Virus record (IMG/VR): IMGVR_UViG_3300045988_155859
DNA from: a virus
Lineage: Duplodnaviria > Heunggongvirae > Uroviricota > Caudoviricetes
Length of the DNA: 48,404 nt
Direction: 5' to 3' (one strand)
Positions 2,666 to 14,119 of this stretch are shown here, piece by piece; within the stretch, counting starts at the first letter, position 1, and every line of letters begins with the position of its first letter. The notes beneath the pieces were generated by a model. It was given only the letters and a program-made list of their open reading frames with translations. It was not told the origin of the DNA and did not search any database. Both the position numbers and the translations under genes were made by a program.

Positions 2666-3319
2666 TTACGCGGCAGTAGTCAGAGCCTCAAGCTGGTTGA
2701 TAATCCCCTGAATAACGTCGTCTGCCTTTTTGCGTGGCGCAACGTATGAGCATTCAATGAGGCTTAAGCCCTTATCCTGAGCTTTGCTCAGAGCTGGCTT
2801 GTGGGGAATGTACTTATCGACAACAAAGTATGGCGTATTAGCTAGGTACTCTTGGGCTTCAATGTAGTCGGCTTCGTTTTCAGCCGCGCCTGAGAACACC
2901 ATGCAAATTTTCTTGATTGGCACACCCTTTTTAACGATGCCGTGAGCTGTGTTAACGGTGGTTTCTAGGTCATCGGTAGAGAATCTGGTTGGCAAAATAA
3001 CCATATCCAGAAATTCAGAGAGCTTCGGTACTGATTCAGATGCGTAGGCACCGCCATCGACGATAACCAGGTCGTATACTTCTGATTCGATGATTTTCTG
3101 GACTTGTGATGGCGTGCCGCACGGCTGCGCCGCGATTGCAGGTTCGATATTGTTGGCCATTCTGCGTTGTACCCAACGCGTTACCGTTCCGTTAAGCACA
3201 TCCATATCGATCAGGCATACATTCCAGCCGGCCTTTGCATAAGCAACTGCTAAAGCACGGGCAATTGTTGATTTGGTTACGCCGCCTTTTCCGTTGAAAA
3301 TACCTACAGAGATAGTCAT
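2666..3319 (-). CDS. parF: ParF-like small ParA-family partition ATPase
   Basis: Deviant Walker A GKGGVTKST near the N-terminus and a length of about 217 aa. The second ATG (3319) has a GGAG RBS; the ORF track start at 3334 does not. Confidence 0.8.
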   Translation of the reverse strand: MTISVGIFNGKGGVTKSTIARALAVAYAKAGWNVCLIDMDVLNGTVTRWVQRRMANNIEPAIAAQPCGTPSQVQKIIESEVYDLVIVDGGAYASESVPKLSEFLDMVILPTRFSTDDLETTVNTAHGIVKKGVPIKKICMVFSGAAENEADYIEAQEYLANTPYFVVDKYIPHKPALSKAQDKGLSLIECSYVAPRKKADDVIQGIINQLEALTTAA

Positions 3320-3340
3320 TTGTCGAGACTCCATGTGTTT

Positions 3341-3936: not shown

Positions 3937-4593
3937 TCATAACCAGTTGACAACACTAACTACGCGGCCAAGAACTTTATAACGCTTAAATTCCTCGTTA
4001 TTCAGATGCTTAGTGTTCATTTCAGCATCCCTTTCGGTTGACAGCATAACAGCATTGTCACCCGGTATGACTCTACAGTGCCTCAAAACAACCAGGCCAT
4101 TTCTGTCTTCAAGGGCATAGATCCCCTCATGAATCTCTGTATCGTCTGTATTAATCAGGACTTGGGAGCCTGGGGATATTGTTGGTGACATTAACTCATC
4201 GTTGCTCTGGAGAACTGACAGAGACGATGGGTTGATGTTCTTGCTTCGTAGAATCTCCTGTTCTATCGCCAGCACTGGCTTTTCTCCGGCGTGCGATGCT
4301 ATGTCATTTTTTATAGCTACAAGCCCAGGAATAACAGGAGCGTTAGTATTCTGGGGTGGGAACGGGTTATCTGTTAAGCACGCGATATAAGGCGCTGATG
4401 CTTTCAGGGCGTGCGCGATTTTCTTGATGGCAGGTATAGATGGTTGTCTTAATCCGGCCTCATAGTTCTGCAAGGTGCTTAAGCCTATTCCAGTGACTTG
4501 CTGGAGATCTCCGGCAGTCATGCCGGATTGTTTCCGTAGAGTCTGAATGCGCAGACCTATTTCTTTCTTGATGTTCTCGTCGTTGCTTTTCAT
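3937..4593 (-). CDS. cI: CI-like repressor (N-terminal HTH, C-terminal LexA/S24-like domain)
   Basis: 218 aa: N-terminal HTH region (GMTAGDLQQVTGIGLSTLQNYEAG), linker, then a C-terminal domain with conserved Ser and Lys candidates. Divergent from the Cro-like gene across an operator-rich intergenic region. Confidence 0.8.
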   Translation of the reverse strand: MKSNDENIKKEIGLRIQTLRKQSGMTAGDLQQVTGIGLSTLQNYEAGLRQPSIPAIKKIAHALKASAPYIACLTDNPFPPQNTNAPVIPGLVAIKNDIASHAGEKPVLAIEQEILRSKNINPSSLSVLQSNDELMSPTISPGSQVLINTDDTEIHEGIYALEDRNGLVVLRHCRVIPGDNAVMLSTERDAEMNTKHLNNEEFKRYKVLGRVVSVVNWL

Positions 4594-4630
4594 GTCTCAT
4601 CAATCGTGAATGGTGGGTTATTTATACATT

Positions 4631-4645
4631 ACCACATTTAGTGGT
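4631..4645. promoter_or_regulatory. Operator ACCACATTTAGTGGT
   Basis: ACCAC-N5-GTGGT dyad in the cI-cro intergenic region. Confidence 0.6.
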
Positions 4646-4712
4646 TTTCACATGGTAAGACGAGAGGTGGACCACAAATAGAAGGTTATTTTTTGTTTCG
4701 CCCATTGAAAAA

Positions 4713-7287: not shown

Positions 7288-8355
7288 ATGAATAAACAAG
7301 TAATTATTTCTGACTGGATCAACAACCCTAACAGCCTGTTAAGCACTGATACTGGCTACCTATTACGCCATGTTAATGGTCGTATGGTCAAAAGCGATGA
7401 GCACGAAACCTTTTTCTTTGTTGAAGACGATGGGCGTATCTATGAGGATGGTTACTCTTATGAAGCCCAAACTGGTTGTATCCCTGCGGAGCTGGTGGAT
7501 GTAACAGAAGATCTGCGCAAAGCATGGCTTGAACAGCAGCAGCGCGGAGATGATTACGTAAACACCTATCAGGAACGCCAGAACGCGCGTCTTGCCCGAT
7601 ATATTGCTCGTGCAGAAAAAGCCAGAAAAGAAGGTGCGGTAGCGCATAAGCGAGCGCATGACCTGTTGGATGTGATCCCGTTAGGCCAGCCGATTTTAGT
7701 TGACCATTATAGCGCGAAAGGCCATCGCCGCCGTTTGTCTAAAGCTGATGCGTTATTCAGAAAAGCGTTTGTTGAATGCGAAAGTAAAGCATCACACTAC
7801 GAGAGCAAAGCCGCAGGTGTTGGTCGTAATGGAATTTCGTCTGATGATCCTGATGCGCTATTTAAGTTGCTTCGTAAGCTGCAAGGCTGCATGAAGTCAC
7901 ACGTCAAAATGAAGGCCGCAAATAAGGCCATTCGCAAATACAAAAAAGACCAAATACAGCAGCTTTCTGCATTAATCGATCTCAGGTTTACAGAAAGCGA
8001 AGCCAAAGAGTTACTGGCCGGAGATTTCTGTGGGCGCATCGGATTCCCTTCATACGCACTGAGCAACAATAACGCCGAAATCAAACGACTACAGAGCCGT
8101 ATTAAGGAGCTTGAATCGGTCAAGTCTGTAACAGGAGCACAGCGCGAAGAATACGACGGCTTTTCTATGGAGATAGATCCAGAGGATAACCGCATCCTGT
8201 TTTATTTCCCTGGCAAACCAGAGGCAAACATTCGTTCGCTGCTTAAATCACGCGCCTTTAAGTGGAGTCCAACCCGTAATGCATGGGTTCGCAAGATTAC
8301 TCCAAACGCCCTGGCTGATGCCCGATATCTGAAAGAATCGCTATTGAAAGCCTGA
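7288..8355 (+). CDS. DUF3560-like protein
   Basis: 355 aa with GQPILVDHYSAKGHRRR motif, which I associate with DUF3560; first gene downstream of cassette copy A. Confidence 0.45.
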   Translation: MNKQVIISDWINNPNSLLSTDTGYLLRHVNGRMVKSDEHETFFFVEDDGRIYEDGYSYEAQTGCIPAELVDVTEDLRKAWLEQQQRGDDYVNTYQERQNARLARYIARAEKARKEGAVAHKRAHDLLDVIPLGQPILVDHYSAKGHRRRLSKADALFRKAFVECESKASHYESKAAGVGRNGISSDDPDALFKLLRKLQGCMKSHVKMKAANKAIRKYKKDQIQQLSALIDLRFTESEAKELLAGDFCGRIGFPSYALSNNNAEIKRLQSRIKELESVKSVTGAQREEYDGFSMEIDPEDNRILFYFPGKPEANIRSLLKSRAFKWSPTRNAWVRKITPNALADARYLKESLLKA

Positions 8356-8387
8356 CAGTAAGCCTACGGCGGGATGTCTCCCGCCGT

Positions 8388-8411
8388 ATATAGAATTATA
8401 TATTTATATAA
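8388..8411. repeat. AT-rich motif cluster (ATAGAATTATATATTTATATAAATG)
   Basis: Same TATA-rich motif family, upstream of the 8412 ORF. Confidence 0.45.
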
Positions 8412-8714
8412 ATGTATAAGGACGCCTCGACAATGAAACGCAAAATTATTAACCCCCAAGATGTGATTAATTTCCTGACCGATCACCCATGTTCAAAAGT
8501 GGACGTAATCGCGGAGCACATTGGTGTGTCGCAGAACTCTATGCGTTGCAGACTGAGAAGCATGGTTGCCGAAGGACAGATAACAACCAGGAAAATAAAT
8601 GGTTGCCTGTACTACTCCGCTAAACCGGAATTGCCATTTGGCATGAATCCTAACTCCATGTTGTTTAACACCTTATTAGCCAAAGTTAAGCCGTTGAGAG
8701 GGGCTGTGGCATGA
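8412..8714 (+). CDS. Putative winged-helix DNA-binding protein
   Basis: 100-aa ORF with VDVIAEHIGVSQNSMRCRLRSMVAEGQI helix-turn-helix-like segment; true start may be the internal Met at 8433. Confidence 0.4.
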   Translation: MYKDASTMKRKIINPQDVINFLTDHPCSKVDVIAEHIGVSQNSMRCRLRSMVAEGQITTRKINGCLYYSAKPELPFGMNPNSMLFNTLLAKVKPLRGAVA

Positions 8715-9076
8715 GCATCAAAACACATACCGGAATAATCATTACCAATGATGGTGAGAAAAAAGTGAAGTTGCGCGAGACGCCGACAACCTGGTGTGTT
8801 GGTCCGAAAGAAACATATCGCAAGGAAGATGGCCGTCGTTGTGGGGCACCACTTTCCCGCCGTCGCCTCCTTTTGAGCACGATAAAACCTATCGGGCAGG
8901 TTGAGCAACCAACGACTCCGGTAACGAAGATTTCAGACAAGAGTCTGGCAAACCTGATCGCCGATGCGGACAAGGTGCTGGAGCGGAACACCCCAGTAGC
9001 CGATGAGGAATGGTGGCAGGATTTCCGAGCCGCAATGCTAGAGCTTCAGGAACGTCGTCGGGAGGAGTTGAAGTGA
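8711..9076 (+). CDS. Hypothetical protein
   Basis: 121-aa ORF with stop/start overlaps on both sides. Confidence 0.4.
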   Translation: MSIKTHTGIIITNDGEKKVKLRETPTTWCVGPKETYRKEDGRRCGAPLSRRRLLLSTIKPIGQVEQPTTPVTKISDKSLANLIADADKVLERNTPVADEEWWQDFRAAMLELQERRREELK

Positions 9077-9081
9077 GCAAG

Positions 9082-9702
9082 ATGAAAGAGCGCGGCATGA
9101 TTTTTAATGATGCGATGGTCAGGGCCATCCTCGAAGGCAGGAAGACGCAGACTCGTCGACCTGTAAAAAATGTCAGGGCCGATAACTGCCTGGTTATCCG
9201 TAAACCGACAAAGAAACGCAATGGTGTCTATACCCACGTTATGGATGCACCGGAACATGGTTTATGCCCGTTCGGTAACGTTGGTGATCGCATATGGGTC
9301 CGTGAAACATTCAACGCTTTTTGGCTGGATAACGATGTCATTCAGGAAATCAAAGATGGTGTCTCTCTGGCTTCTGAACTGTGTGATTACAAGGCTGATT
9401 ACTCAGATAGTAGCAAGCCAGCTGAGGGCTGGACCCCGTCGATTCACATGCCGCGCTGGGCTTCACGTATTTTGCTGGAAATTACCGACGTGCGTGTGGA
9501 ACGGCTGCATGACATGAGCGAGGCAGATGCTAAAGCGGAAGGCGCATCTCCGGCGACGTACAAGATTACACCGCCGGAAGCTGTTTATCGCGTTGGCTTT
9601 GGTGATATCTGGCGCGGTATTTACGGGCAAGAGAACTGGCTATCTAACCCGTGGGTATGGGTAATTGAGTTTAAACGTATTCAGGGGGCAACCAGTGAGT
9701 AA
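9082..9702 (+). CDS. ASCH/PUA-like domain protein (putative)
   Basis: MIFNDAMVRAILEGRKTQTRR N-terminal motif; start moved to the ATG at 9082, which has a GGAGGAG RBS. Confidence 0.4.
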   Translation: MKERGMIFNDAMVRAILEGRKTQTRRPVKNVRADNCLVIRKPTKKRNGVYTHVMDAPEHGLCPFGNVGDRIWVRETFNAFWLDNDVIQEIKDGVSLASELCDYKADYSDSSKPAEGWTPSIHMPRWASRILLEITDVRVERLHDMSEADAKAEGASPATYKITPPEAVYRVGFGDIWRGIYGQENWLSNPWVWVIEFKRIQGATSE

Positions 9703-9952
9703 TTCCGCACGGCTACAGCTTGGTTTTTCACCGCTATCAAAAACCATCGTGTTGGCCAAAATGCGCGATTTAGGTGACGGAACAAAACGCCGTGTAGGCA
9801 ATGATCGCGGTTGTGATGTAACCAACGAGGCCGCACAACTCGTTTGGCATCTTGTCATGGCAGAAGGCGGTGAAATCAATTGGGAGCTGGATGATGGTTC
9901 TCGCATGGTGTTAAGGGCAGAAAAGCAGGGGGCAAACGATGAAAAACCGTAA
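9695..9952 (+). CDS. Hypothetical protein
   Basis: In-frame GTG at 9695 with AGGGGG RBS and GTGA overlap of the upstream stop. Confidence 0.35.
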   Translation: MSNSARLQLGFSPLSKTIVLAKMRDLGDGTKRRVGNDRGCDVTNEAAQLVWHLVMAEGGEINWELDDGSRMVLRAEKQGANDEKP

Positions 9953-10130
9953 AGCAAAGATGCTTATTTCCCGTGTATACAGACTTTGCTACCCCAGCCA
10001 GTGGTTGAGAGTTAGCAATCGCCGTGTGGTGTTGTTTTCATTTTCTGGAATTGCCAGAGAGGGAGTCAAAGATAAGCGCAGCGCGGCGCAAAACCGCTGG
10101 AAAAACCACTTGCGTACTAAAGGAGAGTGA
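9939..10130 (+). CDS. Hypothetical small basic protein
   Basis: 63-aa ORF ending in the conserved junction GTGATATGG shared by downstream genes. Confidence 0.3.
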   Translation: MKNRKAKMLISRVYRLCYPSQWLRVSNRRVVLFSFSGIAREGVKDKRSAAQNRWKNHLRTKGE

Positions 10131-10131
10131 T

Positions 10132-10341
10132 ATGGCTGTTGCCGCAAGTTACACCATGCATCTCTACTGTGATTGTCGTCAGTGTACAAATGGTAAATAT
10201 CAGTCGCCAGACTTCGGTGAGTATATCGGTACGTCATGGGCAGGCTGTGCAAAAGAGGCGCGCAAGGATGGCTGGCGAATAAGCAAAGACAAAACGCGTG
10301 CTTTTGCGCCCGGGCATAAAGTTTTGAGGATTAATAAATGA
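10132..10341 (+). CDS. Hypothetical Cys-rich small protein
   Basis: Start at the internal Met with AAGGAGAG RBS; MAVAASYTMHLYCDCRQC... Confidence 0.4.
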   Translation: MAVAASYTMHLYCDCRQCTNGKYQSPDFGEYIGTSWAGCAKEARKDGWRISKDKTRAFAPGHKVLRINK

Positions 10342-10787
10342 CCACTATTACCAAAGAACGTGCGGAGATTAAATCATTCATCACAGGCTTCCTGAGCGAC
10401 CCGGCGCACGATAACCAATCTTCAAGCAGTCTGCTTGCCAATGTGTTTCGTATCGCACTGGCATCGTTGGAAGCAGAGCCAGTCGCGTGGCGATATCGCT
10501 ACGTGAAAAAAGGCGTTACGGACTCTCAGGGGGAGCCGTGGGTTGGTGACTGGAAATATGTACCGACAAAAGAGGATTGCAACGACAGGCCGAGCTATGA
10601 AATTCAGGCGTTATTCACTCCCCCGCCTGTGCCACTGATACCAGAAGGATTGATTAAAGCAGTGCGCTTCTATGAACAGGTTAAGCGTGAAAATCCGCCA
10701 GTCGAAACCGGAGCATGGAAAGACGCTGTTGACTGGGTTCTCGAAGAGGCTTGTCAGGCTGTAAACATTGGCATCAAAGGAGGGTGA
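10338..10787 (+). CDS. Hypothetical protein, member of the IALASLEAE paralogue family
   Basis: Contains FRIALASLEAEPVAW; related motifs in the 11080 and 11495 ORFs. Confidence 0.45.
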   Translation: MTTITKERAEIKSFITGFLSDPAHDNQSSSSLLANVFRIALASLEAEPVAWRYRYVKKGVTDSQGEPWVGDWKYVPTKEDCNDRPSYEIQALFTPPPVPLIPEGLIKAVRFYEQVKRENPPVETGAWKDAVDWVLEEACQAVNIGIKGG

Positions 10788-10788
10788 T

Positions 10789-11076
10789 ATGGCAACTTTG
10801 CAGGAATTAATCGACCTGACGCCAGAACAGGAAAAAGCGTGGAATCGCCTTGTAAAGGCTGTAAAGGATTTCAGGGCAGCCGGAGGAAAGTTTTATAGCG
10901 TCCTGGACACGCTGAGCGCATACAACGGCGAGCACGTTGCCAGCATTGATAACGATAAGGGCTACCACACTGCAAGCGTCTATATGCCTAGCATTGATGC
11001 GCCAGGGCTAACCAGTTGGGCTGATGATTGGCACGGCATCACGCTGAAAGATGGGGTTGAAGTGGATGAGGACTAA
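10789..11076 (+). CDS. Hypothetical protein
   Basis: Start at the Met following GGAGGGTGATATGG; 95 aa. Confidence 0.4.
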   Translation: MATLQELIDLTPEQEKAWNRLVKAVKDFRAAGGKFYSVLDTLSAYNGEHVASIDNDKGYHTASVYMPSIDAPGLTSWADDWHGITLKDGVEVDED

Positions 11077-11079
11077 CAC

Positions 11080-11493
11080 ATGACTACTTTTACCGACAAA
11101 GAACTGATTAAAGAAATCAAAGAGCGCATAGGCAGCCTGGACGTCCGAGACAATATTGAGCGTCGGGCTTATGAAATTGCTCTGGCATCGCTGGAAGCAG
11201 AGGCAGTTATGTTCTGTATATCAGGACAAAATGTAGATTCAGAAGAACATGTATCAACCAGCAAAGCGGTTGTTGATGCCTGGGTTGAAGAATGGAATCA
11301 GGTTGACGGAAGTCCTGGCGAACCACTGTACAAAACTATGCCACTCTACTATCACGCTGCCTTGCCAGCGCCGGTAGTGCCGGATGAAATGTATTGGCAG
11401 GATGCGCCAGTTGAAGGCAGCAGCAAAGCGGCTGCATACGCTACAGGCTGGAATGCCTGCCGCGCCGCCATGCTTCAGGGGAAAGGGAAGTGA
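11080..11493 (+). CDS. Hypothetical protein, IALASLEAE paralogue
   Basis: Contains AYEIALASLEAEAV. Confidence 0.45.
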   Translation: MTTFTDKELIKEIKERIGSLDVRDNIERRAYEIALASLEAEAVMFCISGQNVDSEEHVSTSKAVVDAWVEEWNQVDGSPGEPLYKTMPLYYHAALPAPVVPDEMYWQDAPVEGSSKAAAYATGWNACRAAMLQGKGK

Positions 11494-11494
11494 T

Positions 11495-11770
11495 ATGGCT
11501 ACTTTTACCAAAGAGCAATTGATTGCCCATATTCGTGAACGTAAGGAAGCGCGCCAGAGAATGTTGGATACGGTAACTATTAACCCCGGATTTCGTGAAT
11601 ATCTTGAAAGAGAGCTTGCTACAGATGAAATTGCACTGGCATCCCTGGCATCTGCACCTGTTGCATGGCTAGTTGGAGGGCGTTTGTTCACAACTGAGAT
11701 AGCTGCGGGGATGTACGCTAGTGAGGTGAGGAAAGCAGTTAAGCCGCTATTCTTTTCTGCACTACTGTGA
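11495..11770 (+). CDS. Hypothetical protein, IALASLEAE paralogue
   Basis: Start at MATFTKEQ after GGGAAGTGATATGG; contains EIALASLASAPVAW. Confidence 0.4.
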   Translation: MATFTKEQLIAHIRERKEARQRMLDTVTINPGFREYLERELATDEIALASLASAPVAWLVGGRLFTTEIAAGMYASEVRKAVKPLFFSALL

Positions 11771-11914
11771 GTATTGTTTTTTTATTGATCGATTAACCAC
11801 ATTTTGAAGGTTTTTTTATGGGGAAACCTTGTTTTAGGTGGTAACTGGGTGTAGTGTTTCATTTAACGTAGTAAAACTGCGTTAAGCGATTACCGCGTAA
11901 TTTGTTGCTTTATG

Positions 11915-11947
11915 AAGCCCTGCCTTTTTCGGCGGGGCTTTTTTTTT
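11915..11947 (+). terminator. Intrinsic terminator immediately upstream of the lysis cassette
   Basis: GAAGCCCTGCC-TTTTTC-GGCGGGGCTT hairpin followed by a run of 9 T; the holin ATG is 14 nt downstream. Confidence 0.7.
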
Positions 11948-11960
11948 AACGAGGATTTCA

Positions 11961-12356
11961 ATGTCAGCAGAACCAATTTCCGGTACGGCCGTTGCTGCTG
12001 GTGGCCTGATGGGTGCCAGCGTTTTTGGTATTGCAACTGGTATTGATTACGGCGTTGTATTCGGGGCATTTGCTGGCGCTGTTTTCTATGTTGCTACAGC
12101 GGTGAATATTAGCCGTCTCAAGCTGATTGGCTATTTCTTTACATCGTTCATTGTTGGAGTGATTGGAGCGCCGTTAGTTGGCTCATTTCTTGCCAAATGG
12201 ACCAGCTACAACGATCGACCTCTTGATGCGCTTGGTGCGGTTATTGTGGCTGCATTGACAATTAAAATCCTCACGTTCGTAAACAGCCAGGATCTCGGTA
12301 GCATCTTTGGAATACTTTCCCGCTTACGTGGAGGGGGTTCAAATGGTAAGCAGTGA
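11961..12356 (+). CDS. Holin-like membrane protein
   Basis: 131 aa with several hydrophobic segments; first gene of a cassette that continues with the endolysin and spanins. Confidence 0.5.
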   Translation: MSAEPISGTAVAAGGLMGASVFGIATGIDYGVVFGAFAGAVFYVATAVNISRLKLIGYFFTSFIVGVIGAPLVGSFLAKWTSYNDRPLDALGAVIVAALTIKILTFVNSQDLGSIFGILSRLRGGGSNGKQ

Positions 12357-12639
12357 CCCGTCAGCACTGATTAATGCGGTGCTTTGCACAGTAATAGTAA
12401 TGGCGCTGATGCTTTATCGACGGAAAGACTCCAGGCATCGTCCATTTGTTTCCTTTCTGGCTTATATCTACGTCATTGTATACGCCAATGTTCCCTTCCG
12501 TTATGTGTTCGGTCTTTATCAAGAATCCCACTGGCTGGTGGTTATTGGAAATCTGATTATCTGCATCGTTGTTCTGTATTTCAGGGGCAATCTGGCGCGG
12601 ATAGTTGACGCATTAGGATTTAATCATGACCAAAGATGA
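12343..12639 (+). CDS. Second small membrane protein (holin or antiholin-like)
   Basis: Start at the internal Met with GGAGGGGG RBS; hydrophobic segments; sits between the holin and the endolysin. Confidence 0.45.
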   Translation: MVSSDPSALINAVLCTVIVMALMLYRRKDSRHRPFVSFLAYIYVIVYANVPFRYVFGLYQESHWLVVIGNLIICIVVLYFRGNLARIVDALGFNHDQR

Positions 12640-13168
12640 GATTTTTAACAGCATTCTTGGAAAAGAGGGCGGCTATGTGGATCACCCTGACGACAAGGGA
12701 GGCCCAACAAAGTGGGGCATTACTCAGAACACTGCCCGTGCTCATGGATACCGTGGCGATATGCGCGATTTAACCCGCGAACAGGCACTAGAAATCCTTG
12801 AGGCTGATTACTGGTACGGACCACGCTTTGATCAGGTGGCCGCATTATCCTCTGATATTGCCGCAGAGCTGTGTGATACCGGTGTGAATATGGGGCCAAC
12901 AGTGGCGTCCAAAATGCTTCAACGCTGGCTGAATGTGTTCAATCTGCGTGGGAAGCTGTATCCCGATTTGGATGCAGATGGACGAATCGGTCCACGTACC
13001 ATTAATGCGCTGCGTGCTTATCTTGGGAATCGGGGAAAAGACGGCGAACGGGTGATGCTGACGTCGCTGAACTGTACGCAGGGCGAACGCTATCTGGAGT
13101 TGGCGGAGAAGCGCGAGGCGAATGAGTCGTTTGTCTACGGCTGGATGAAAGAGCGAGTGGTGGTATGA
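12626..13168 (+). CDS. Endolysin, GH108-type muramidase with peptidoglycan-binding domain
   Basis: N-terminal EGGYVDHPDDKGGPTKWGIT motif characteristic of GH108 lysozymes. Confidence 0.8.
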   Translation: MTKDEIFNSILGKEGGYVDHPDDKGGPTKWGITQNTARAHGYRGDMRDLTREQALEILEADYWYGPRFDQVAALSSDIAAELCDTGVNMGPTVASKMLQRWLNVFNLRGKLYPDLDADGRIGPRTINALRAYLGNRGKDGERVMLTSLNCTQGERYLELAEKREANESFVYGWMKERVVV

Positions 13169-13736: not shown

Positions 13737-13812
13737 GGCCCCTTAGCTTAGTGGTTAGAGCAGGCGACTCATAATCGCACGGTCATCGGTTCAAATCCGG
13801 TAGGGGCCACCA
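13737..13812 (+). tRNA. tRNA with anticodon CAU (Met, or Ile if lysidine-modified)
   Basis: 76 nt folding by hand into a cloverleaf: 7-bp acceptor stem (GGCCCCT/AGGGGCC), D-arm GCTT...GAGC, anticodon loop CTCATAA, T-loop TTCAAAT, encoded CCA end. Confidence 0.8.
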
Positions 13813-14119
13813 ATTCACCCTCACACATAAAGATAAGCGCGGTGGAGTTACTTCTTCGTGCTCATCTTTATGCGTGCCTGGTGCGCATTTCGGGCGAACG
13901 TGGGGCTAAGTTACAGGCAGGGCCTGTTATCCGCAAAGGGGTAAAAGCTGGAGCGGCACGGAACTGTAGCCGTGTTACCAAAACAGCGCTGTCGGGCGAT
14001 ATCCGGCACACAACAGGCAAGGGCATTAATCAGTCTGGTTAGTGCCCTTTTCGTTGTGTCTGCTGTAGAGCTGGTCAGCGTTATGACTGCCGGAGATAAG
14101 CGCCGGAGGCACAACTAAC

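Follow-up and report, generated by a model that had tools for sequence, protein, structure and literature searches.

How do six small genes of a temperate phage come to be joined, at several of their boundaries, by one and the same short stop-start sequence, and what might that sequence do there? The question is raised by gA-gF, six contiguous + strand genes within 9939-11770 of virus record IMGVR_UViG_3300045988_155859, as delimited by reading the sequence of 9700-12100 together with a listing of its open reading frames (ORFs); the whole stretch of 48,404 nucleotides (nt) is called the window below. The genes form the distal end of an early operon and occupy a hypervariable slot of a ~48 kb Escherichia coli phage-plasmid, a temperate myovirus with Yersinia phage vB_YpM_39 among its relatives. 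With a probability of roughly 0.72, gA-gF are a cassette array of 'ea'/exo-xis-type genes in which the joint is a boundary element serving both translation restart and short-homology crossover. An earlier sequence-only reading of this DNA had noticed the repeated junction and a core motif common to three of the products; what it missed is that this junction and the IALASLEAE motif recur across the family as boundary or linker elements where genes and domains have been exchanged.

A stop-start joint repeated along gA-gF

The motif GTGATATGG occurs three times in the window, each time on the + strand (at 10127, 10784 and 11490), where 0.31 copies are expected and none of 100 shuffles reaches three; the extended 19-mer AAAGGRRRGTGATATGGCW likewise gives three matches across the whole window against 0.00 expected (repeat family D2). 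All three copies are true stop/start joints of the form TGA-T-ATG, at gA|gB (10128-10134), gC|gD (10785-10791) and gE|gF (11491-11497), which bears out the recurrence of TGA, one base and ATG that had been described. In joint 1 (10119..10137, AAAGGAGAG-TGA-T-ATGGCT) a Shine-Dalgarno sequence written in the K-G-E codons is followed by the stop, one nt and the start; motif and repeat scans place joint 3 at 10776..10794 (AAAGGAGGG-TGA-T-ATGGCA) and joint 5 at 11482..11500 (AAAGGGAAG-TGA-T-ATGGCT), and the consensus reads AAAGGAGRG-TGA-T-ATGGC. The Shine-Dalgarno sequence (AAGGAG, AGGAGG or AGGGAAG) lies 6 nt upstream of the ATG, which itself begins 1 nt past the stop. Since this site is encoded by the final codons of the preceding gene (K-G-E/G/K), the unrelated proteins gA, gC and gE have K-G-E, K-G-G or K-G-K at their C-termini.

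The count of four consecutive identical junctions does not hold, as gA-gF contain five joints and the motif stands at the first, third and fifth only. The gB|gC joint, which had been listed as similar at 10336-10340, is an ATGA overlap without GTGATATGG (ATG 10338-10340, TGA 10339-10341), and the gD|gE joint, which had gone unmentioned, is TAA-cac-ATG with a 3-nt spacer (11074-11082). A scan of all tight joints found just one dubious one-base-gap joint elsewhere in the genome (TAAcATG at 14116), the remaining tight joints of the window being ATGA or TAATG/TGATG overlaps. The joint is one of three DNA repeat families that run across gA-gF, together with the gene start and the linker. A second repeated joint, CAGGGGGCAA(C/A)C(A/G)(G/A)TGA, was observed at 9682-9698 (between the ASCH and DUF7446 genes) and at 9926-9942 (between DUF7446 and gA); in this type a GGGGG Shine-Dalgarno sequence and the start codon both lie inside the last codons of the upstream gene.

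The joints have the geometry of translationally coupled pairs, with stop and start within a few nt of each other and the Shine-Dalgarno sequence inside the upstream ORF, and this geometry fits termination-reinitiation. RNA folding of 101-nt windows at all five joints gave z-scores of -1.2 to +0.9 relative to shuffled controls, with no structure hiding the starts, and for that reason independent initiation is equally possible; coupling along the chain, judged from geometry alone, is plausible and not required. Structure-gated coupling and an attC-like recombination site had also been considered and were dropped, the folds being no stronger than those of shuffled controls. The lambda nin region is a known translationally coupled operon of small genes with ATGA overlaps. 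With coupled operons of temperate phages the window shares stops and starts a few bases apart, Shine-Dalgarno sequences in the upstream ORF and the lack of intergenic promoters and terminators; unlike those with 4-nt or 1-nt overlaps, its joint is a 1-nt gap within a fixed 19-mer.

All six ORFs are real genes. Each has a PHROG match of full or near full length (expectation value, E, 1e-22 to 1e-66), each start is preceded by a correctly spaced Shine-Dalgarno site, and the ratio of nonsynonymous to synonymous polymorphism (pN/pS) over homologous segments of related loci is 0.42, 0.16, 0.22, 0.03, 0.05 and 0.33 for gA to gF; these values, which partly derive from very few segments (one for gF, two for gD), indicate purifying selection on all six. 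The 63-residue gA (9939..10130), with the C-terminus ...RTKGE*, matches phrog_1380 over its full length (E 2.6e-34), and a homologue stands before the same joint in vB_YpM_39. The Cys-rich gB (10132..10341, 69 residues) is the homologue of L0068 of the Shiga toxin (Stx) phage 933W and matches phrog_926 over its full length (E 1.4e-36), and gD (10789..11076, 95 residues) is the orthologue of 933W L0066, with a full-length match to phrog_2821 (E 7e-66). The three paralogues are gC (10338..10787, 149 residues; phrog_660, E 2.8e-54), gE (11080..11493, 137 residues; phrog_5117, E 1.3e-40) and gF (11495..11770, 91 residues; phrog_5117, E 1.1e-22), the last of which straddles the right edge of the slot. 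A database search returned 2064 homologues of gC, all 'hypothetical', and 2309 of gE; those listed for the two genes come mostly from E. coli and bear the names 'hypothetical', 'DUF551 domain-containing' or 'ead/Ea22-like'. With PHROG matches and homologues in the thousands, the concern that the ORFs might lack conservation in related genomes is removed.

Some observations concern individual genes of the chain. The cysteines of gB form a CxCxxC...C pattern (MHLYCDCRQC...GC) that may bind zinc; the protein is conserved in Stx phages, and neither a family nor a structure match was obtained for it. In 933W, L0068 (L002 2987-3274) is annotated as a 95-residue ORF that spans an unannotated gA-like ORF and the conserved ACTAAAGGAGAGTGATATGGCT joint; this record looks like an annotation error, as PHROG profiles of 62 and 69 positions support two genes. 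Alternative start calls are seen in L0068, P0386 and P0388, and the ORFs 10024-10341 and 11384-11770, which extend gB and gF upstream in an overlapping frame, were judged to be annotators' alternative starts, a frameshift-fusion reading of them being set aside for want of supporting evidence.

Homology breakpoints and the origin of the genes

The joint is found far beyond the window. Across 80 IMG/VR loci collected via the gC-type N leader, the gene strand has 105 one-base stop/start joints and the opposite strand 2; almost all have the sequence AAAGGAGAG-TGA-T-ATG or TATAAGGAAAAC-TGA-T-ATG, and they connect 33 upstream with 30 downstream families in 52 pairings. The joint varies between GAG, GGG and AAG, and in relatives its spacer is T, A or G. 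Loci chosen by the motif alone provide a less biased sample: the exact 17-mer AAAGGAGAGTGATATGG occurs in at least 120 viral contigs, 79 of the 81 usable sites lie between ORFs of at least 40 codons, and these sites link 24 upstream to 14 downstream families in 43 pairings, with at least eight unrelated upstream proteins sharing the tail ...GIRIKGE* before the 17-mer.

Comparison with individual relatives places the ends of homology on the same elements. In vB_YpM_39, homology covers 9601-10136, ending in joint 1, and restarts at 11768, in the gF stop codon, while the stretch shared with 933W opens on the TGA of joint 3 (10785) and closes shortly ahead of the gE linker (11180). Among six sister backbones, homology of the left flank ends at 9685-9699 (the second repeated joint, CAGGGGGCAAnCnnTGA), at 10136 or at 10359 (the repeated gene start) and resumes at 11064, at 11433-11452 (the C-tail module) or at 11768-11773, most of these breakpoints falling on a repeated element or a gene end. 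The sister plasmids L083, L085 and L087 are those that lose homology at 9685-9699, just before the DUF7446 gene, and the backbone resumes at 11768-11773 in vB_YpM_39 itself (L001), L084 and L086. In plasmid pN32b (L084) a gE-type gene comes immediately after gB, as recombination between repeated gene starts would produce. Against the 80 loci, match ends pile up at 10130-10139, 10330-10339, 10480-10499, 10790-10799, 11170-11209 and 11430-11489, with 71 BLAST match ends of related loci at 10480-10499 alone. Close relatives thus have conserved flanks and variable content: in the sister plasmids the flanks are 91-99% identical and the slot holds 3-9 different genes, including truncated fragments, several of which are marked as such by PGAP, and many 'incomplete' fragments lie at linkers. 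In the slot of vB_YpM_39 the same joint is directly followed by a 171-residue protein (4134-4649) unrelated to anything in the window.

Judged by their homologies, gA-gF belong to the mosaic 'ea'/exo-xis accessory gene pool of lambdoid and P22-like phages. Over 10074-11180 the best DNA matches, at ~95% identity, lie between exo and xis of Stx phages, 933W among them. At the protein level gB shares 91% identity with residues 25-93 of L0068, gD 99% with L0066, and the gE leader 88% with the leader of L0065, an 'EaA-like' protein that ends in a DUF551 domain. In HK620, hkaE has the same N module and IALASLGAEPV followed by DUF551, and the Ead/Ea22-like hkaG ends ...GIRIKGE* and is joined to hkaF via ATCAAAGGAGAGTGAGATGG. 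Both gC and gE share their middle and tail modules with proteins that have the Ead_Ea22 Pfam domain. At least 80% of 9600-12000 is found in none of 5426 complete E. coli genomes, of which 3210 contain pieces of it, and in none of 50,697 phage records; the exact six-gene order is likewise absent from both sets.

The exo-xis 'ea' genes (933W L0065-L0068, HK620 hkaE/F/G, P22 EaA/Ead, lambda and Stx Ea22) are related to the window genes by direct homology and share with them early expression, dispensability, mosaicism and partial duplication (PMC8614690, PMC10834534). Part of the exo-xis region is a variable gene set with full or partial duplications (PMC8614690), and Ea22 proteins are mosaic and tetrameric, with portable C-terminal domains such as DUF551 (PMC10834534). 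Whereas the exo-xis genes belong to the lambdoid PL operon, those of the window close the rightward early operon of a phage-plasmid and immediately precede its lysis cassette, and unlike some of their relatives the window proteins themselves carry neither an Ead_Ea22 nor a DUF551 domain.

The joint could act as a crossover point because the same 17-25 nt lie between many unrelated gene pairs in co-resident prophages. In the proposed mechanism a ribosome ending at the TGA would restart at once, or a new one would bind the exposed Shine-Dalgarno sequence, and the promoter-less chain would be translated from one early transcript. The joint would also provide the short homology through which entire genes are exchanged, gained or lost, the breakpoints being those seen in the comparisons, and the enzymes would probably be phage Rad52-type recombinases, which act on short, diverged homology (PMC3945230). 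Within genes the same logic would make the linkers LASLEAEPVAW and PLY..PAPVVPE exchange points for protein modules. Conserved gene-boundary sequences have been described as recombination targets (PMC3233612, citing Susskind & Botstein 1978 and Clark et al. 2001 on HK620), and the window agrees with this linker model in having a short sequence over the stop/start between many unrelated gene pairs and breakpoints that coincide with it, the latter observed with a bias from the selection of loci. Beyond that model, the principle would here extend to the two intragenic linkers. Integron cassettes are similar in being promoter-less gene arrays exchanged as units at short conserved boundaries; unlike theirs, the window boundary is a translational signal and the exchange presumably homologous, not site-specific. 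There is no sign of an integron-type integrase or of an attC-like palindrome, the joint RNA folds being unremarkable and the whole window not having been screened for an integrase.

Modules and linkers in gC, gE and gF

The three paralogues share an N-terminal module of 45-60 residues that begins MTT(I/F)TK and ends at IALASLEAEPVAW in gC, IALASLEAEAVMF in gE and IALASLASAPVAW in gF. Pairwise BLASTP comparisons give E-values of 6e-5, 4e-6 and 4e-4 at 27-35% identity, and PHROGs 660, 5117, 60 and 3323 are matched by all three; because of these E-values and common PHROGs over the whole module, the IALASLEAE(P)VAW core that had been picked out in the three products reflects homology and is no low-complexity coincidence. 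The end of the module, Linker 1, lies at 10452..10490 in gC and 11176..11214 in gE (both repeat family D1) and at 11630..11668 in gF (from core comparison, repeats and comparison of sister tails), all on the + strand. Linker 2, the Pro-rich ALPAPVVPDE of gE (11365..11387, +), is a conserved column block in the alignment of gE homologues (A3), and isolated matches of 23-25 nt to it, at 92-96% identity, occur in vB_YpM_39 and in plasmids L083 and L086.

The proteins are assembled from these modules in different ways. The gC protein consists of an N leader (10338-10493), a beta mini-domain, a Pro-rich linker and a C-terminal helical tail ending IKGG*; gE has an L0065-type (EaA-like) N leader, a mini-domain, the PAPVVP linker and the tail ...GWNACRAAMLQGKGK*; and gF joins an exchangeable N leader to a tail that is constant in the phage-plasmid family. 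The alignment of gE homologues, together with individual matches, shows a general plan of a variable N leader, LASLEAEPVAW, a variable mini-domain of ~45 residues, PLY..(A/P)PAPVVPE and a C-terminal helix of one of few types (...GWNACRAAMLQGKG(K/E), ...AVDWVLEEACQAVNIGIKG(E/G) or ...IAAEIWNACRAAMLHGKGE). Most other combinations exist among database relatives: P0126 is a gC leader on a gE body, P0158, P0203 and P0206 are gE bodies with a gC tail, P0210 and P0179 join an Ead_Ea22 domain to the gE body, and P0132 and P0139 add a DUF551 domain. Beyond the linker, P0387, P0389, P0390 and P0392 carry almost the same gF tail (two of them with a single substitution each), and four different leaders precede it.

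A profile search with the N module returned 433 clusters at 50% identity, in proteins of 48-340 residues, with the match nearly always at residues 1-45/51. Among 145 representatives of the N leader, DUF551 is present in 29, a dATP/dGTP pyrophosphohydrolase domain (PF04447) in 5 and a tail-fibre assembly domain in 1; this single protein (among P0241-P0385), with a Caudo_TAP domain at E 5e-33, is an unexpected fusion that may be an assembly or gene-call artefact. The module is present once in 63 loci, twice in 20 and three times in 2. PF13935 (Ead_Ea22) has no match at E<=0.1 in any of gA-gF, and gC and gE share just their middle and tail modules with PF13935-bearing proteins such as P0210 and P0152; PF04448 (DUF551) has no match in gC, gE or gF. 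At the codon level, the L-A-S-L-E-A core of linker IALASLEAEPVAW has a same-codon fraction of 0.56-1.0, an excess computed over sequence pairs that are not independent, and the linker is likely conserved at both the protein and the DNA level.

Competing explanations, genomic setting and meaning

Several observations weigh against the cassette array with crossover at the joint. A length of 17-25 nt is short for efficient homologous recombination, and a Red, Erf or RecT recombinase was not identified in the window, a RusA-like resolvase alone being seen. Collection of the 80 loci via the N leader biases the positions of match ends, and part of the agreement between breakpoints and motif may stem from selection, as the joins that survive are those in frame at gene ends. 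Translation of the upstream gene may be dispensable, since the Shine-Dalgarno sites are strong and free of structure. The edges of the linker have a same-codon fraction of 0.18-0.46, about that of random codon choice (the expectation being a rough estimate, not a computed one), and the linker is at least partly kept for the protein. The role of the proteins is drawn by analogy and is weakly held, the AlphaFold2 models having a predicted local distance difference test score (pLDDT) of 52-56 and the fold and sequence searches being empty.

With respect to function, the searches that had been proposed for the paralogues were informative in part. Profile searches gave the PHROG matches described above; Pfam, NCBIfam and PADLOC scans of gA-gF yielded sub-threshold noise alone, and a PDB sequence search with gC and gE gave nothing below E=0.3. 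AlphaFold2 models built on 42-sequence alignments reach a mean pLDDT of only 56.4 for gE and 52.0 for gC, with 75-82 in the N-terminal two-helix hairpin of gE and <50 in the rest of it; these low-confidence models predict an order of hairpin, beta strands and C-terminal helix or helices. Foldseek searches of the weak gC and gE models against BFVD and PDB returned uncharacterised or DUF551 phage proteins, every PDB match having E>1, and in the literature no study of these protein families and no mention of the motif strings was found. As the modules are shared with the oligomeric, lysogeny-modulating Ea22 family, and by analogy with Ea22 and the exo-xis region, the proteins could tentatively be dispensable early proteins with a modulatory role, in which a constant N leader and C helix would serve assembly or stability and a variable middle would engage a host or phage target. 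A T4-type capsid-targeting propeptide cut at L-x-E had also been considered for the N leader and was rejected by reasoning, the motif being without L-x-E and the genes being early genes of a temperate phage.

A rival proposal, of low probability, is that the cassette encodes anti-defence or host-takeover proteins, a combinatorial set of inhibitors against variable host immunity. The locus does have the conserved flanks, hypervariable content, different in every relative, and early expression by which phage accessory regions are defined (bioRxiv 10.1101/2023.04.06.535777), and the N leader of relatives is fused to a dATP/dGTP pyrophosphohydrolase domain, a kind of phage enzyme of which MazZ inhibits host restriction enzymes (PMC10834534). 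No homology to a characterised inhibitor appears in Pfam, NCBIfam, PADLOC or PDB, however, and the gA-gF families were not found in the supplements of two accessory-gene screens. Moreover, experiments on relatives, which exist for Ea22 and the exo-xis region alone, show an effect on the choice between lysis and lysogeny, not on defence (PMC7093339; PMC10789677; PMC8614690). Evidence for or against anti-defence is found in none of Pfam, NCBIfam, PADLOC, PDB or the literature, dedicated anti-defence profiles not having been used.

It is rather improbable that the joints are convergent translational signals alone, each gene having arrived at its own optimal Shine-Dalgarno sequence, TGA and ATG with no role in recombination. 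Most of the conserved bases are indeed translational (the AAGGAG Shine-Dalgarno sequence, the 6-nt spacing, the stop and ATGG), and non-functional positions do vary. Conservation nevertheless reaches bases that translation does not need, namely the upstream ATC/ACT AAA, the ...GIRIKGE tail and the GC after the ATG; the rest of the genome uses other joint types, so the motif is no general optimum; and homology breakpoints land on it.

Local tandem duplication of an ancestral gene with its joint, followed by rapid divergence, has very little probability. Three paralogues within 1.4 kb, with repeated starts, linkers and joints, speak for it, and three N-module copies per locus are the top of the range seen. 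Yet the paralogues are 27-35% identical to one another, whereas module by module gC, gE and gF are 88-100% identical to proteins of other phages that have different partner modules, and the genes that follow the three joints (gB, gD and gF) are unrelated. Accelerated protein evolution is not seen, pN/pS being 0.05-0.33 for the paralogues and 0.03-0.42 across all six genes; this speaks, at the level of point substitutions, against the rapid diversification that had been suggested and leaves module shuffling as the way in which these genes diversify. Of the tandem paralogue array described from the sequence, the paralogy of three proteins and the hypervariability of the locus therefore stand, and local duplication does not, each protein being a mosaic with its closest relatives elsewhere. 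That the ORFs are not genes and the motif a non-coding repeat, for which the missing Pfam/NCBIfam matches of the six ORFs and the low-confidence structure models might be cited, is contradicted to near certainty by full-length PHROG matches, thousands of length-conserved homologues, pN/pS <0.5 in all six genes and well-spaced Shine-Dalgarno sites.

The genomic setting agrees with the placement of these genes in the early region of a temperate element that the sequence-only reading had proposed. Leftward genes encode an anti-repressor (47-1057, - strand), a ParA-like protein (2666-3334, -) and a CI-like repressor (3937-4593, -), and from ~4768 a rightward operon encodes the RusA-like resolvase, a primase-like protein, a MarR-like regulator, an ASCH-like protein and DUF7446, followed by gA-gF. 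The slot is flanked on the left by the ASCH-like backbone gene (9082..9702, +; phrog_874, E 3e-86; 'ASCH domain-containing protein' by PGAP in sister plasmids), whose start is inferred from 621-nt PGAP homologues, and by the DUF7446 gene (9695..9952, +; GTG start; PF24233, E 4e-16; phrog_1578), and on the right by the holin gene. The early operon is closed by a strong intrinsic terminator (11914..11950, +) with an 11-pair stem (7 G-C) and a T run, 11 nt upstream of the holin start at 11961, and a lysozyme gene lies beyond. No promoter-like site was found on the + strand across 8300-12700, and an Rfam scan gave no RNA family within 9939-11960. The backbone matches Yersinia phages vB_YpM_39, 41 and 44 and circular E. 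coli plasmids, mostly of 47.7-52 kb and up to ~60 kb; with these circular relatives and phages and the ParA-like gene, the element is therefore assigned to a phage-plasmid family.

Further features of the backbone were observed. The 190-nt non-coding stretch between gF and holin (11771-11960) is ~98% conserved in the plasmid family, with small hairpins noted by eye, and resembles a late-gene control region, which would depend on a late promoter or on antitermination. Just past the lysis cassette is a tRNA-Met (CAT) gene (13737-13812), and sister elements have tRNA-Met or tRNA-Ile at the same place. Near the anti-repressor gene, Rfam matches above the gathering score comprise the C4 antisense RNA (1299-1386, -; 84 bits), the Hfq-binding isrK RNA (1411-1484, -; 70 bits) and ryfA (1856-2152, +; 142 bits); this cluster beside an Ant-like anti-repressor suggests P1/P7-type, immI-like antisense RNA control of the anti-repressor. 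Many of the plasmid relatives come from human clinical isolates (cerebrospinal fluid, blood).

The locus reveals no new kind of system; it is a new arrangement of a known kind, lambdoid 'ea' genes in a phage-plasmid hotspot, and an unusually clean example of the linker model. It is of value for annotation, as in the over-extension of L0068 and the 'incomplete' PGAP fragments at linkers. A bolder extension of the cassette array, held only as a possibility, is that the joint and the two linkers form a dedicated recombination 'grammar', maintained partly at the DNA level, from which co-resident prophages and phage-plasmids would build combinatorial operons and multi-module proteins; if true, it would be the homologous-recombination counterpart of integron cassettes at the level of both gene and domain and would supply a diversified library of early proteins for host targets. 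As it stands, the locus is a compact example of how temperate phages rebuild their accessory genes, with a joint of ~19 nt and two coding linkers marking exchanges between lambdoid prophages and an unrelated phage-plasmid backbone. It bears on whether mosaic boundaries arise by targeted short-homology recombination or by random joining and selection, for which the joint offers a defined, mutable sequence.

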